A stretch of DNA of 64,000 bases, taken from assembly GCF_030013205.1 (NCBI RefSeq), contig NZ_CP122648.1; one strand, given 5' to 3'. Every line of letters begins with the position of its first letter. The stretch's first letter is position 1. Under the pieces are notes generated by a model that was given only the letters and a program-made list of their open reading frames with translations, was not told the origin of the DNA and ran no database searches. Source of the DNA: Escherichia coli. GTDB taxonomy: Bacteria; Pseudomonadota; Gammaproteobacteria; Enterobacterales; Enterobacteriaceae. Below, piece by piece: positions 13,952 through 20,890 of the stretch. Made by a program: the position numbers and the translations under genes.

Positions 13952-15415
13952 ATGTCTTTAGCAAAAGATAATATATGGAAATTATTGGCGCCCTTGGTGG
14001 TGATGGGTGTCATGTTTCTTATCCCTGTACCTGACGGTATGCCGCCGCAGGCGTGGCATTACTTTGCAGTGTTTGTGGCAATGATTGTCGGCATGATCCT
14101 CGAGCCAATTCCGGCAACAGCGATCAGTTTTATTGCGGTTACTATTTGCGTTATTGGCAGTAATTACCTGCTCTTTGATGCCAAAGAATTAGCTGACCCA
14201 GCGTTTAATGCGCAAAAACAGGCGCTGAAATGGGGTCTGGCTGGTTTTTCCAGCACCACGGTATGGCTGGTATTTGGCGCATTTATTTTTGCATTAGGGT
14301 ATGAAGTTTCCGGGTTAGGCCGTCGTATTGCCCTTTTCCTGGTGAAATTCATGGGCAAACGCACGCTGACGTTGGGTTATGCGATTGTCATTATCGACAT
14401 TCTGCTGGCACCGTTTACACCGTCCAACACCGCGCGTACCGGGGGTACGGTTTTTCCGGTCATTAAAAACCTGCCGCCGCTGTTTAAATCATTCCCGAAC
14501 GATCCGTCCGCGCGTCGTATTGGCGGCTATTTGATGTGGATGATGGTCATTAGTACCAGTCTGAGTTCGTCCATGTTTGTCACCGGTGCGGCACCAAACG
14601 TGCTGGGTCTGGAGTTCGTCAGCAAAATTGCCGGTATCCAGATTAGCTGGTTGCAGTGGTTCCTCTGCTTCCTGCCGGTTGGGGTTATCTTGCTTATCAT
14701 TGCGCCGTGGCTTTCCTACGTGCTGTACAAACCGGAAATCACACACAGTGAAGAAGTGGCAACCTGGGCGGGTGATGAACTAAAAACCATGGGTGCGCTG
14801 ACACGCAGAGAGTGGACGCTGATTGGTCTTGTATTGCTCAGCTTAGGTTTGTGGGTATTTGGCAGTGAAGTCATTAATGCTACTGCGGTAGGTCTGCTGG
14901 CAGTTTCGCTAATGCTGGCCCTGCACGTTGTGCCGTGGAAAGACATTACCCGCTATAACAGCGCATGGAACACACTGGTCAACCTGGCAACTCTGGTTGT
15001 GATGGCTAATGGCCTGACTCGTTCTGGTTTTATTGACTGGTTCGCCGGTACCATGAGTACGCACCTGGAAGGATTCTCACCAAACGCAACGGTGATTGTA
15101 CTGGTTCTGGTGTTCTACTTTGCACACTACCTGTTTGCTAGCCTGTCTGCGCACACCGCAACCATGCTGCCGGTTATTCTGGCCGTCGGTAAAGGTATTC
15201 CGGGCGTACCAATGGAACAACTGTGTATTCTGCTGGTGCTGTCTATCGGTATCATGGGCTGTCTGACGCCGTATGCAACCGGTCCTGGGGTGATTATTTA
15301 CGGCTGTGGCTATGTGAAATCAAAAGATTACTGGCGACTTGGTGCAATCTTCGGGGTGATTTACATCTCTATGCTGCTGTTGGTTGGCTGGCCGATTCTC
15401 GCCATGTGGAACTAA
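13952..15415 (+). CDS. citT: citrate:succinate antiporter CitT
   Basis: 487-aa polytopic membrane ORF with Shine-Dalgarno; matches CitT. Confidence 0.95.
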   Translation: MSLAKDNIWKLLAPLVVMGVMFLIPVPDGMPPQAWHYFAVFVAMIVGMILEPIPATAISFIAVTICVIGSNYLLFDAKELADPAFNAQKQALKWGLAGFSSTTVWLVFGAFIFALGYEVSGLGRRIALFLVKFMGKRTLTLGYAIVIIDILLAPFTPSNTARTGGTVFPVIKNLPPLFKSFPNDPSARRIGGYLMWMMVISTSLSSSMFVTGAAPNVLGLEFVSKIAGIQISWLQWFLCFLPVGVILLIIAPWLSYVLYKPEITHSEEVATWAGDELKTMGALTRREWTLIGLVLLSLGLWVFGSEVINATAVGLLAVSLMLALHVVPWKDITRYNSAWNTLVNLATLVVMANGLTRSGFIDWFAGTMSTHLEGFSPNATVIVLVLVFYFAHYLFASLSAHTATMLPVILAVGKGIPGVPMEQLCILLVLSIGIMGCLTPYATGPGVIIYGCGYVKSKDYWRLGAIFGVIYISMLLLVGWPILAMWN

Positions 15416-15482: not shown

Positions 15483-15528
15483 GATTTAATAGATAGTATT
15501 CAGTGTATGTATGAGTTCCACACCCATT

Positions 15529-16335
15529 ATGAAAGCATTCTGGCGTAACGCCGCGTTGCTCGCGGTTTCTCTGCTTCCCTTCTCTTCTGCCAACGCCGTA
15601 GCGTTGCAGGCAAAACAGTATGGCGATTTTGATCGCTATGTCCTGGCCCTCTCATGGCAAACCGGATTTTGCCAGAGTCAACACGATCGAAATCGTAACG
15701 AACGAGATGAATGTCGCCTGCAAACCGAAACGACCAACAAAGCTGATTTTCTGACCGTACATGGTCTGTGGCCAGGATTGCCTAAATCGGTTGCTGCCCG
15801 TGGTGTTGATGAACGCCGCTGGATGCGCTTCGGTTGCGCTACTCGCCCAATCCCGAATCTACCAGAAGCGCGCGCCAGCCGAATGTGTTCATCGCCGGAA
15901 ACCGGGTTATCGCTGGAAACGGCAGCTAAACTAAGTGAAGTCATGCCAGGAGCTGGCGGACGTTCCTGCCTGGAACGCTACGAATATGCCAAACACGGTG
16001 CCTGCTTTGGTTTTGATCCAGACGCATACTTCGGCACGATGGTACGCCTGAATCAAGAAATTAAAGAGAGCGAAGCCGGAAAATTCCTTGCGGATAACTA
16101 CGGTAACACAGTGAGCCGCCGTGACTTTGATGCCGCCTTTGCCAAAAGCTGGGGAAAAGAGAACGTGAAAGCAGTTAAGCTAACGTGCCAGGGTAACCCT
16201 GCGTATTTGACTGAAATTCAGATCTCGATCAAAGCTGACGCCATCAACGCTCCGCTTTCTGCCAACTCATTCTTGCCACAACCACACCCAGGCAACTGTG
16301 GCAAAACCTTTGTGATTGATAAAGCAGGTTATTAA
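15529..16335 (+). CDS. rna: periplasmic ribonuclease I
   Basis: 268 aa from internal ATG (MKAFWRNAALLAVSLL..., signal peptide); matches RNase I. Confidence 0.94.
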   Translation: MKAFWRNAALLAVSLLPFSSANAVALQAKQYGDFDRYVLALSWQTGFCQSQHDRNRNERDECRLQTETTNKADFLTVHGLWPGLPKSVAARGVDERRWMRFGCATRPIPNLPEARASRMCSSPETGLSLETAAKLSEVMPGAGGRSCLERYEYAKHGACFGFDPDAYFGTMVRLNQEIKESEAGKFLADNYGNTVSRRDFDAAFAKSWGKENVKAVKLTCQGNPAYLTEIQISIKADAINAPLSANSFLPQPHPGNCGKTFVIDKAGY

Positions 16336-16564
16336 TCCTCTGATTTACAAAACACGCTAATTCGTCTTCCATAAACCATGACGATTAAGATTTATACATA
16401 ATGCGCTACATTGAGGAATTCCCTGAATGTGACGCAAATCACTTCAAAGAGTGAGCAACAGTCAGTATCATCATGTGAGTTAAACCCTCGCCGCCTGACG
16501 GTGAGGGTTTTCTTTTGGGTATGTTTATCTGCGACACTCGCAGTACCGACGACATGGAGTAAAA

Positions 16565-16975
16565 ATGTCCAGACCAACTATCATCATTAACGACCTGGAT
16601 GCCGAACGCATCGATATTCTGCTGGAGCAACCCGCCTATGCTGGTTTGCCAATCGCCGACGCGTTAAACGCAGAGTTGGATCGCGCCCAAATGTGTTCGC
16701 CAGAAGAGATGCCACACGACGTGGTGACAATGAACAGCCGGGTTAAATTCCGCAATCTTAGCGATGGCGAAGTGCGTGTGCGCACGCTGGTGTATCCGGC
16801 AAAAATGACCGACAGCAATACTCAGCTTTCCGTTATGGCTCCGGTAGGTGCTGCACTGCTGGGGCTGCGCGTTGGCGATTCCATTCACTGGGAACTTCCG
16901 GGCGGCGTTGCAACCCACCTTGAAGTGCTGGAACTCGAATACCAGCCAGAAGCTGCTGGCGACTACCTGCTTTAA
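16565..16975 (+). CDS. rnk: regulator of nucleoside diphosphate kinase (GreA/GreB-like)
   Basis: 136-aa ORF; matches Rnk. Confidence 0.94.
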
Positions 16976-17330
16976 TCCCATCTGCACAAGCGATAACTCG
17001 CTTTGCCCAGAGGATGCACTCGCATCCTCTTTTCGCTCAAATATCAACCAGATTTATCATTTTGCTCTTAAGCGCAGCATTCTAATCTGAACTGGTTATT
17101 CATCTGCGGAACCTCATATGAGCGAAGCTCTCGGTATCACTGCATTTTATATATTCATAGCCGCGATTATTGTTGCTGCAGTGCTATACCTTGAACAACG
17201 CTGGTAGCGCCTGGTTTTATTTATTTTCCAGCTCAATAGCAAATTCAGATCAAATCAGCCTCGCAAATCATAGATTCATAACCAATAATGTGCTGTTATG
17301 TATACATGCAAAAACAAGGAGAGAATGCTT

Positions 17331-17759
17331 ATGTACAAGACAATCATCATGCCAGTGGATGTTTTCGAAATGGAATTGAGCGACAAAGCTGTTCGCCACG
17401 CTGAATTCCTCGCCCAGGATGACGGAGTTATTCATCTACTTCACGTACTACCCGGGTCAGCCAGCCTGAGCCTGCACCGTTTTGCCGCTGATGTGCGTCG
17501 TTTTGAAGAGCATCTGCAACATGAAGCAGAAGAACGTCTGCAAACGATGGTCAGCCACTTCACCATCGATCCTTCCCGCATTAAGCAACATGTCCGTTTT
17601 GGTAGCGTGCGGGATGAAGTCAATGAGTTGGCAGAAGAACTGGGGGCTGATGTTGTAGTTATCGGTTCGCGCAACCCTTCGATTTCGACCCATCTGTTAG
17701 GTTCTAACGCCTCGAGCGTGATCCGCCACGCCAATCTGCCGGTGCTGGTTGTGCGTTAA
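17331..17759 (+). CDS. uspG: universal stress protein G
   Basis: 142 aa from internal ATG ([14 protein letters not shown]...); matches UspG. Confidence 0.94.
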
Positions 17760-17814: not shown

Positions 17815-18525
17815 GCCATAATAAATATCCTCCGGCATAGCCGGAGGTTTTTCAAATGCGCCTATAAGGCTCTCTTACCAGCCGCGCCCTAACAGGCGCA
17901 CACGATCTGACATTTGCATCCAACTTCGTTACTTACGGCCCGTAAACGGGCTGCCCGGATAGGGAATCGATAACTGCTCTCCCATTTTATCCTCTTCAAG
18001 CTGGTGCTTTATGTAATCCTGTATCTTCGCCGTGTTCTTACCCACTGTATCGACGTAGTACCCTCTGCACCAGAACTCCCTGTTCCTGTATTTGAATTTC
18101 AAATCACCAAACTGCTCGTAAAGCATCAGACTGCTTTTCCCTTTCAGATATCCCATAAACCCGGATACGCTCATTTTGGGCGGGATCTCCACAAGCATAT
18201 GGATATGATCTGCACAGCATTCAGCTTCCAGAATCCGTACGCTTTTCCACTCACACAGCTTTCTCAAAATACTGCCTATTGCTCTACGCTTCTCTCTGTA
18301 GAACACCTGTCTTCGGTATTTTGGCGCAAAAACTATGTGATATTTACAGTTCCATCGGGTGTGCGCTAAGCTCTTTTCGTTCCCCATTGGGACCCCCTTT
18401 TGATTTCTTGTTTGACACTTGCAGTTGCCAGACCGCAAGGTGTTTTAACAAATCAAAAGGGGTTTTAATAACTGGCTCAAAGCTGAAAGCTTTCCGGAAC
18501 CCCCAGCCTAGCTGGGGGTTTTCTG
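17815..18525 (-). mobile_element. IS200-like insertion sequence (IS200/IS605 family); boundaries approximate
   Basis: about 710 bp of extra DNA between the uspG and ahpF terminators; it encodes a 152-aa Y1 (HUH) transposase and has the IS200 left-end hairpin (aacccccagcctagctgggggtt) plus an RBS-proximal structured leader. Confidence 0.75.
17929..18387 (-). CDS. tnpA: IS200 transposase TnpA (Y1 HUH transposase)
   Basis: 152 aa from internal ATG (MGNEKSLAHTRWNCKYHIVFAPKYRR... with the HxH motif in ADHIHML); near-identical to Salmonella IS200 TnpA from memory. Confidence 0.93.
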   Translation of the reverse strand: MGNEKSLAHTRWNCKYHIVFAPKYRRQVFYREKRRAIGSILRKLCEWKSVRILEAECCADHIHMLVEIPPKMSVSGFMGYLKGKSSLMLYEQFGDLKFKYRNREFWCRGYYVDTVGKNTAKIQDYIKHQLEEDKMGEQLSIPYPGSPFTGRK

Positions 18526-18532
18526 TGCACAA

Positions 18533-18590: not shown

Positions 18591-20156
18591 TTATGCTGTT
18601 TTGGTGCGAATCAGGTAGTCAAAAGCACTCAGAGAGGCTTTGGCACCTTCGCCAGTGGCGATGATGATCTGCTTGTACGGAACCGTTGTACAGTCACCCG
18701 CTGCGAACACGCCTTTCACGTTGGTTTCGCATTTCGCATCAATGATAATCTCGCCCATGCGGTTACGTTCGACTGCGCCTTCGAGCCAGTTGGTGTTCGG
18801 CAGCAGACCAATCTGCACGAAAATACCGGCCAGTTCGATGTTGTGAATATCGCCGCTGACACGATCGCGATATTCCAGACCTACGACTTTGCTACCGTCG
18901 CCTTTCACTTCCGTGGTTTGCGCATTCAGAATAATGTCGACGTTTTTCAGGCTGCGCAGTTTGTCCTGCAGAACCTGGTCGGCTTTCATTTCTGGCGCAA
19001 ATTCCAGCAGCGTTACGTGCTCAACGATACCCGCCAGGTCAATTGCCGCTTCCACGCCGGAGTTACCGCCGCCGATAACCGCTACGCGTTTACCTTTAAA
19101 CAGCGGGCCGTCGCAGTGCGGGCAGTAGGTCACGCCTTTGGTGCGATACTGATCTTCGCCCGGAACGTTCATGTTGCGCCATTTTGCACCGGTCGCCACG
19201 ATAATGCTGCGTGCTTTCAGTACCGCGCCAGAAGCTGTTTCAATCTGATGCAGGCCACCTTCAACCGCTGCCGGGATCAGTTTGCTGGCGCTCTGGCTGT
19301 CGATCACATCAACGTCGTATTCATCAACGTGAACTTTCAGCGCACCTGCCAGTTTCTGGCCTTCGGTCTTCGGTACAGAAATGTAGTTTTCGATATCAAC
19401 GGTATCGAGGATCTGACCACCAAAACGTTCGCCCATCAAACCAGTACGGATACCTTTACGTGCGGAGTAAATTGCTGCCGCTGCACCCGCCGGGCCGGAA
19501 CCGACGATTAATACGTCATAAGCATCACGCTTGTTCAGCTCTTCTGCCGCACGTTTTTCCGCGCCAGTATCAATTTTGGCGACGATTTCAGTCAACGTCA
19601 TGCGACCCTGACCAAACTCTTTCCCGTTTACGAACACTGCCGGAACGCCCATCACGTTGCGATCGGTGATTTCGTTCTGGAAGGTGCCGCCGTCAATTGC
19701 AGTGTGCTTGATGCGCGGGTTCAGTACGCTCATCAGGTTCAGCGCCTGCACCACATCCGGGCAGTTGTGGCAAGAGAGCGAGTAATAGGTTTCGAATTCA
19801 AAATCACCGTCAATATGGCGAATCTGCTCCAGCAGAGACTGCGCTTCTTTCGACGGATGACCACCTGTCCACAGCAACGCCAGTACCAGCGAGGTAAACT
19901 CGTGGCCCAGCGGGGAGCCTGCAAAACGTGGCCCCTGGTTGGAACCTGGCTTGGTGATCAGGAAAGACGGCTTACGCACTGGCAAGCTGTTATCTTCTTT
20001 AAAGGTGACTTTGTCTGACAGTTCTGCGATTTCAGCCAACAGTTCCTTGATTTCTGCCGATTTAGCGCTGTCATCCAGCGTGGCAATTAACTCAACAGGC
20101 TTGGTCAATTTCTCAAGGTAAGCCTTGAGTTGAGTTTTCATATTTGTGTCGAGCAT
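18591..20156 (-). CDS. ahpF: alkyl hydroperoxide reductase subunit F
   Basis: 521 aa from internal ATG ([17 protein letters not shown]...); matches AhpF. Confidence 0.96.
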
Positions 20157-20326: not shown

Positions 20327-20890
20327 TTAGATTTTACCAACCAGGTCCAGAGACGGAGCCAGAGTTGCTTCACCTTCTTTCCATTTAGCCGGGCAAACTT
20401 CACCTGGGTGAGAAGCTACGTACTGTGCTGCTTTGATTTTACGCAGCAGGTCAGACGCGTCACGGCCAATGCCTTCAGCGGTAACTTCGATTGCCTGGAT
20501 GATACCCTGCGGGTCAACAACGAAGGTCGCACGGTCAGCCAGACCTTCATCTTCACGCATGTTGTCGAAGTTACGGGTCAGGGCGCCAGTCGGGTCGCCG
20601 ATCATCGCATATTTGATTTTAGCGATGGTTTCAGAGCTGCTGTGCCATGCTTTGTGGGTGAAGTGAGTATCGGTAGATACTGCGTATACGTCTACGCCCA
20701 GTTTCTGCAGTTCTTCGTAGTGGTCAGCAACGTCACCCAGTTCGGTCGGGCATACGAAAGTAAAGTCAGCCGGGTAGAAGAAGAAGACGCTCCAGCGGCC
20801 TTCGGTATCTTTTTCGGTGATTTCGATGAATTCGCCGTTTTTGAATGCCTGGTTTTTAAAAGGTTTAATTTTGGTGTTAATCAAGGACAT
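20327..20890 (-). CDS. ahpC: alkyl hydroperoxide reductase subunit C (peroxiredoxin)
   Basis: 187-aa [24 protein letters not shown]...; matches AhpC. Confidence 0.97.

Follow-up and report, generated by a model that had tools for sequence, protein, structure and literature searches.

In all likelihood, the interval between rnk and uspG in the 64,000-nucleotide stretch of Escherichia coli DNA analysed here (the window) holds the known gene yldA, within a natural haplotype without ybdR that is common, and is not a recent deletion scar. The ybdR-less interval, referred to below as the short form, is widespread and old, and represents an undamaged state of the locus. It comprises three working parts, namely the intrinsic terminator of rnk, the 29-codon gene yldA, whose product is a single-helix inner-membrane protein, and the sequence in front of uspG. 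Both yldA and the ybdR-less arrangement are already present in public annotation, and the result matters little in itself, as the gene is named and annotated and the arrangement is normal in about a third of E. coli. Only three points are mildly new, namely the depth of the divergence between the haplotypes, the doubt over which haplotype is derived, and the resemblance of YldA to the small protein YoaI as a lead to function.

The features of the locus are listed in Table 1. The rnk-uspG spacer (16976-17330) is exactly 355 bp long, rnk ending at 16975 and uspG starting at 17331, as the original prediction had it. The window is collinear with strain K_EC180 and identical to it in the stretches compared, and its rnk gene is 99.5% identical to that of K-12. 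The gene order that had been given for K-12 is right, BW25113 carrying rnk, yldA, ybdR (on the opposite strand) and uspG. The absence of ybdR between rnk and uspG was likewise confirmed, and with it the claimed difference in gene content from K-12. The best tblastn match of ybdR in the spacer (E ~1) was no better than those of unrelated control proteins, and no match was found elsewhere in the 64-kb window. The uspG open reading frame extends upstream to an ATG at 17298 in the list of open reading frames, whereas the RefSeq start lies at 17331; this annotated start is supported by the strong Shine-Dalgarno sequence in front of it.

Table 1. Features of the citT-ahpC region in the window (positions are those of the window)
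Feature	Position	Strand	Basis or remark
citT	13952-15415	+	List of open reading frames, gene order
rna	15529-16335	+	RefSeq start 15529; longest open reading frame starts at 15511
rnk leader RNA	16411-16519		Upstream of rnk; Rfam RF01771, 124.9 bits
rnk CDS (regulator of nucleoside diphosphate kinase)	16565-16975	+	Left anchor; open reading frame and RefSeq annotation of K_EC180
rnk intrinsic-terminator hairpin and short T run	17009-17036	+	Fold, cross-genus invariance, K-12 breakpoint at 17036
Haplotype-specific spacer core, 276 bp	17037-17312	none	blastn breakpoints against K-12
Weak Shine-Dalgarno-like GGAA (putative)	17108-17111	+	6 nt upstream of the yldA ATG
yldA, W-type allele, 29 aa (WP_001287361.1)	17118-17207	+	RefSeq and NCBIfam NF041476.1
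yldA-uspG spacer	17208-17330	+	Holds the conserved uspG-proximal block (~17270-17312) and the uspG Shine-Dalgarno sequence
uspG Shine-Dalgarno sequence AAGGAGAG	17316-17323	+	Upstream of the annotated start 17331
uspG CDS (universal stress protein G)	17331-17759	+	Right anchor; RefSeq start
IS200C element, ~705 bp	17826-18530		Between uspG and ahpF
IS200C transposase tnpA	17929-18387	-	Gene order
ahpF	18591-20156	-	Gene order
ahpC	20327-20890	-	Gene order

The rnk terminator hairpin that had been noticed in the spacer is real. It occupies positions 17009-17030 (AGAGGATGC-ACTC-GCATCCTCT), has a GC-rich stem of 9 bp and folds at -15.5 kcal/mol (z = -3.5), with none of 200 shuffled sequences folding as well, and its stem is unchanged in an alignment of 12 genomes from several genera. 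It was not listed by a consensus terminator scan, we think because the maximal stem takes up part of the T run. A consensus promoter scan of the spacer returned no promoter for yldA or uspG and no consensus sigma-70 site. Between yldA and uspG no stable hairpin was found (fold of 17190-17250, z = 0.10), and a block close to uspG (CAGA.TCATA...TGCTGTTATGTAT.CATGC) is conserved in an alignment of Escherichia and two Citrobacter genomes. An Rfam scan with E values up to 1 gave nothing credible in the spacer, the only matches being the known rnk leader and others at chance level. The rnk leader RNA (RF01771, Enterobacteria) ends in a terminator-like hairpin of its own at 16482-16510.

A 29-codon hydrophobic open reading frame at 17118..17207 had been proposed as a possible small membrane-protein gene. 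Its coordinates and its peptide (MSEALGITAFYIFIAAIIVAAVLYLEQRW) hold, and this reading proved to be the right one, as family score, position and length all identify the frame as orthologous to yldA of K-12. In all short-form genomes examined, RefSeq gives the product, WP_001287361.1, as "small membrane protein YldA". The comparison of the peptide with small-protein families gave a match to the NCBIfam equivalog NF041476.1 with 59 bits (E = 3.2e-16) over residues 1-29 of the 29-position profile, which is above the curated cut-off of 45 bits, as is the score of K-12 YldA (57.9 bits). The frame starts 143 bp after the rnk stop codon on the same strand as rnk, and the offset is ~135-150 bp in most orthologous loci, K-12 included. 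The product contains 29 residues forming a single hydrophobic helix, with a C-terminal AVLYLE followed by a basic/aromatic tail. Against the Pfam family PF23689 (YldA-like), the window allele scored 22.9 bits (E = 9e-5), below the gathering threshold of 27, whereas the K-12 allele scored 73.6 bits. This gap suggests that the model is centred on the K-12 type, and in a third of E. coli genomes YldA would escape annotation based on Pfam. A PDB sequence search with the YldA peptide gave no match. The K-12 protein (MAEAFYILIGFLIMAAIIVMAVLYLENHS), encoded between ybdR and rnk, has been detected by chromosomal SPA tagging and immunoblotting (VanOrsdel 2018, PMC6001520).

A frame of 29 codons is unremarkable alone, as several open reading frames of 25-69 aa overlap the spacer on both strands; the frame at 17118-17207 is set apart from them by its conservation. 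A Rnk-based scan of species-representative genomes yielded 80 Enterobacteriaceae loci. The 36 yldA sequences compared (34 distinct loci) comprise the window and an identical copy (L002), K-12, ATCC 25922 and 32 scanned loci, and span Escherichia, Citrobacter, Enterobacter, Lelliottia, Leclercia, Phytobacter and one Kosakonia isolate. All 36 consist of an ATG and 28 further codons, thus exactly 29 codons. The residues M1, E3, A21, V22, L25 and E26 are invariant in this set, and the mean pairwise pN/pS is 0.38. Between E. albertii and the window, 6 of 90 sites in yldA differ, all of them synonymously (pS 0.30, pN 0), whereas 15 of 81 and 21 of 105 sites are changed in the non-coding flanks of the gene. 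Conservation in the multi-genus alignment ends directly past the yldA stop codon. These substitution patterns show that purifying selection acts on the protein encoded by yldA. The earlier remark that the frame has no convincing Shine-Dalgarno sequence is fair but incomplete, because the weak GGAA of the window lies at a site conserved in most orthologous loci. A purine motif (GGAA, GGGAA or GGGGA, the last in Enterobacter) precedes the ATG by 6-7 nt in most of the 36 sequences, with some Citrobacter, Kosakonia-type and Phytobacter loci as exceptions, and the GGAA is a putative Shine-Dalgarno sequence of yldA.

The two haplotypes are separated by sharp breakpoints. Homology to K-12 in blastn stops at 17036, just past the rnk terminator, and resumes at 17313, 18 nt before the uspG ATG. 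The interval between these points measures 276 bp in the window and 1611 bp in K-12, where it contains the K-type yldA, ybdR and the ybdR-uspG intergenic region. The 276-bp core gave no blastn alignment to K-12 even at a word size of 7, and a forced global alignment showed only weak similarity, for the most part within the 3' half of yldA. The YldA proteins of the window and K-12 are 52% identical, 14 of their 29 residues being different, and their genes show a pS of 0.75 and a pN of 0.36, synonymous sites between the two alleles being saturated. The window yldA is closer to a Citrobacter allele than to the K-12 allele. The stop codons of yldA and the convergent ybdR are 3 bp apart in K-12, and the pair has been listed as a convergent excludon in this strain (PMC12288877). 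The E. coli haplotypes differ by the replacement of the whole segment from the rnk terminator to the uspG ribosome-binding site, and not by a clean excision of ybdR.

Among 5426 complete E. coli genomes, 1816 contain the full-length core at 98.2% identity or above, and with it the short form, and the K-12-type combination of yldA and ybdR is found in 3605 of the 5426. Short-form genomes include ATCC 25922, ST131, 536 and E2348/69, which belong to phylogroup B2, and long-form genomes include K-12, O104:H4 and O157:H7. Compared with K-12 and other strains in this way, the interval without ybdR proves to be normal for E. coli, about a third of whose genomes have it. The identity of the short core to that of the window is 98.6-99.3% in other E. 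coli, 92-94% in the Escherichia lineages L003 and L004, 86% in E. albertii and ~73% in Citrobacter. The corresponding values for citT are 98-99%, 91-92%, 90.5% and 83%, respectively. As the identity of the core falls in step with that of the flanking genes, the short form has been vertically inherited in Escherichia.

All four combinations of yldA and ybdR occur across the Enterobacteriaceae. Neither gene is present between rnk and uspG in Kluyvera, most Kosakonia and the C. freundii group, whereas yldA only is present in this window, E. albertii, Lelliottia and Phytobacter, yldA together with ybdR in K-12, C. sedlakii and many Enterobacter, and ybdR only in Salmonella and Silvania. The K-12 yldA and the uspG-proximal sequence of K-12 resemble those of C. 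amalonaticus AUH_CA_2023_1 (L018), the Citrobacter MAG L019, C. sedlakii and C. koseri, whereas the window-type yldA resembles that of Citrobacter sp. R56 and C. amalonaticus S646.

Several genomes in the survey have further peculiarities. A truncated ybdR was found in one genome only, that of E. coli HH97 (L083, NZ_CP116409.1, 2940-3607). It contains a K-type yldA extended to 46 codons, followed by a window-like yldA 3' flank and a 192-bp frameshifted ybdR pseudogene; the stretch is rich in G runs, and either an error of assembly or genuine recombination between the two haplotypes may have produced it. The genome of L004 (NZ_JAATUR010000029.1), labelled E. coli SCPM-O-B-8794, shares only 88-91% identity with the window over rna and citT, and probably represents a cryptic Escherichia lineage rather than E. 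coli proper. The gene ahpF adjoins uspG in most other genera, but in the C. freundii group (L006, L007, L009-L011, L015-L017, L020 and L038) a search of the ~6 kb downstream of uspG did not reveal AhpF, which suggests that this side of uspG has undergone another rearrangement.

The "possible deletion scar" of the original prediction would require that a K-12-like ancestor recently lost ybdR and that the 29-codon frame is a chance frame in the leftover DNA. Such a history could draw on the presence of ybdR at this place in K-12 and two thirds of the complete genomes, on the frequency of short open reading frames in this AT-rich spacer, and on the failure to find a strong Shine-Dalgarno sequence or a consensus promoter. 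It is nevertheless extremely improbable and is not supported by the locus. Neither residual ybdR nor flanks matching the ybdR haplotype up to a junction were found, and no junction repeats were found. K-12 has its own yldA at the same place, beside ybdR, so the frame predates any difference in ybdR and was neither created nor exposed by its absence. A recent excision of ybdR cannot yield a core that gives no blastn alignment to K-12 together with yldA alleles as deeply diverged as these. The short form is also orthologous in E. albertii and two other Escherichia lineages, with a divergence that tracks the flanks, and the one genome with a truncated ybdR, HH97, by contrast retains a K-type yldA and fragments of ybdR. 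A global alignment of the K-12 segment from yldA to uspG with a ybdR-less K-type Citrobacter locus, made for the ybdR junction, gave scattered meaningless blocks except in the last 70 bp before uspG. The conserved block might also be non-coding, being kept as RNA or DNA in the form of a uspG leader, a regulatory site or an element of the rnk 3' UTR, and such a role would suit its position, as uspG follows it directly in the same orientation and no terminator separates the two. This reading can hardly be maintained, however, for a sequence whose substitutions follow a codon pattern, are synonymous only in the comparison with E. albertii and accumulate ~3 times more slowly than in either flank, and in which the length of 29 codons is fixed and the positions of start and stop are conserved across genera. 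The spacer has no Rfam match, folding is no better than that of shuffled sequence (z = -0.25 and 0.10), and the K-12 homologue is made as a protein (PMC6001520).

The direction of the change is less certain than the identity of the interval. We incline, with moderate confidence, to the view that the short form is older within Escherichia and that recombinational replacement brought in the K-12 form, with its diverged yldA and ybdR. Within Escherichia, the short form is the more parsimonious ancestral state: every sampled non-coli Escherichia (E. albertii, L003 and L004) is short-form with a divergence tracking the flanks, and no Escherichia outgroup with ybdR was found among these three, so that fewer changes are needed if the branch to the K-12 and O157 lineages gained the gene. 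The genome scan yielded only three non-K-12-like Escherichia loci, with E. fergusonii, the named cryptic species and the E. coli type strain left out. Against this stands the possibility, doubtful but not negligible, that ybdR and its yldA are older residents of the Escherichia-Salmonella-Citrobacter lineage and that the short form is either an equally old allele kept by selection or recombination or an import into Escherichia; the K-12 form would then be ancestral and the window derived, on a timescale far older than E. coli. K-12 ybdR is 80-81% identical to that of Salmonella and C. sedlakii, and rnk and uspG are 82-83% and 78-80% identical between the same genera, respectively. Its G+C content (50.1%) matches that of the genome and gives no sign of foreign origin. 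Because its divergence equals that of its neighbours and its G+C content is normal, ybdR could equally be an old resident of the lineage. The Citrobacter relatives of both yldA allele types, the occurrence of all four gene combinations across the family and the mosaic of old alleles in the neighbouring uspG also agree with an ancient polymorphism. A literature search on ybdR returned no paper on which strains have or lack it. At this locus K-12 cannot serve as a neutral reference, and its lineage may have acquired ybdR, rather than the window strain having lost it.

The gene uspG is unusually diverse and mosaic in E. coli. Over the 429 sites of the gene, the window shows 26 differences from ATCC 25922 and 10 from K-12, whereas only 2-3 of the 411 sites of rnk are changed in the same comparisons. 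Sites 6-36 of uspG in the window match the B2 type, and nucleotides 276-330 match K-12 and O157, the B2 allele in this part resembling E. albertii and Escherichia L003. The UspG protein of the window (WP_000278505.1) is identical to that of O157:H7, the genes having 16 nucleotide differences, all synonymous. The IS200C element between uspG and ahpF is missing from K-12, O157:H7 and ATCC 25922, and a perfect hairpin with an 8-bp stem is located at its uspG-proximal end (17829-17847).

The resemblance of YldA to YoaI, including an aligned glutamate of known function, is a functional lead and provides a hypothesis that is cheap to test. YldA residues 4-25 have a mean Kyte-Doolittle hydropathy of 2.5. 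The protein has an acidic Glu3 at the N-terminus, a predicted helix of residues ~4-25 and a tail of the form E-(Q/R/N)-(R/H)-W, and the positive-inside rule would place the N-terminus outside and the C-terminus inside. The NCBIfam model NF041475.1 (YoaI) matched the window allele with 30 bits (E = 4e-7); as this is below the cut-off of 45, YldA is related to the YoaI family but is not a member of it. In the reverse comparison, YoaI scored 18.5 bits against a profile of 33 YldA sequences, over a similarity that spans a mostly hydrophobic stretch of 25 residues, and the best of 2000 composition-preserving shuffles scored 9.2, so that none reached this value. The pair E26-R27 of YldA, with the invariant glutamate, aligns on E31-R32 of YoaI. 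Glu31 is located in the cytoplasmic tail of YoaI, and the substitutions E31A and E31Q abolish binding and activation of EnvZ (PMC11429745).

By analogy, YldA might bind a larger membrane protein such as a sensor kinase, as YoaI and other small membrane proteins do, with the invariant tail Glu26 taking the role of YoaI Glu31 in EnvZ binding; we regard a YoaI-like mechanism as rather doubtful, and offer it tentatively. The window yldA and uspG are co-directional and 123 bp apart with no hairpin between them, which makes co-transcription plausible, and the two genes may form one transcript in the ybdR-less haplotype, although this transcription model is a guess. A bolder and unlikely version would make YldA a YoaI paralogue that docks on a sensor kinase or another membrane protein via Glu26, the two diverged alleles being a functional polymorphism rather than a neutral one. 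If this were true, the two YldA alleles could differ in partner specificity or in coupling to the UspG stress response; each is linked to a different uspG upstream region, and one also to ybdR.

Intergenic segments of E. coli can carry old alternative alleles that are swapped by homologous recombination between conserved flanks. The segment described here differs from other strain-variable segments of this kind in that it showed no signatures of mobile elements and has ybdR as its single cargo gene, and is like them in having two discrete alleles (33% and 66%), breakpoints that fall sharply at conserved elements (the rnk terminator and the uspG ribosome-binding site) and a neighbour, uspG, that is itself mosaic. 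The YldA of the window shares with that of K-12 (b4734-class) its location just downstream of rnk on the same strand, its length of 29 aa, its one hydrophobic helix, the C-terminal core AAIIV.AVLYLE and a score above the NCBIfam equivalog cut-off. The two proteins are identical at 15 of 29 residues, the N-terminal half being different and the last three residues being QRW in the window and NHS in K-12, and the downstream neighbour of the gene is the co-directional uspG in the window, whereas it is the convergent ybdR in K-12.

YoaI, a protein of 34 aa that binds and activates EnvZ (PMC11429745), is like YldA a single-helix small inner-membrane protein. YldA is encoded at a different locus, is five residues shorter at the N-terminus, has Ala21 in place of the invariant Ser26 of YoaI, and scored 30 and 22.5 bits against the YoaI model, both below 45. 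The two proteins share the pattern E..IT...(helix)..VL.(L/I)ER, in which E3, I7-T8, V22-L23 and E26-R27 of YldA correspond to E8, I12-T13, V27-L28 and E31-R32 of YoaI, respectively.
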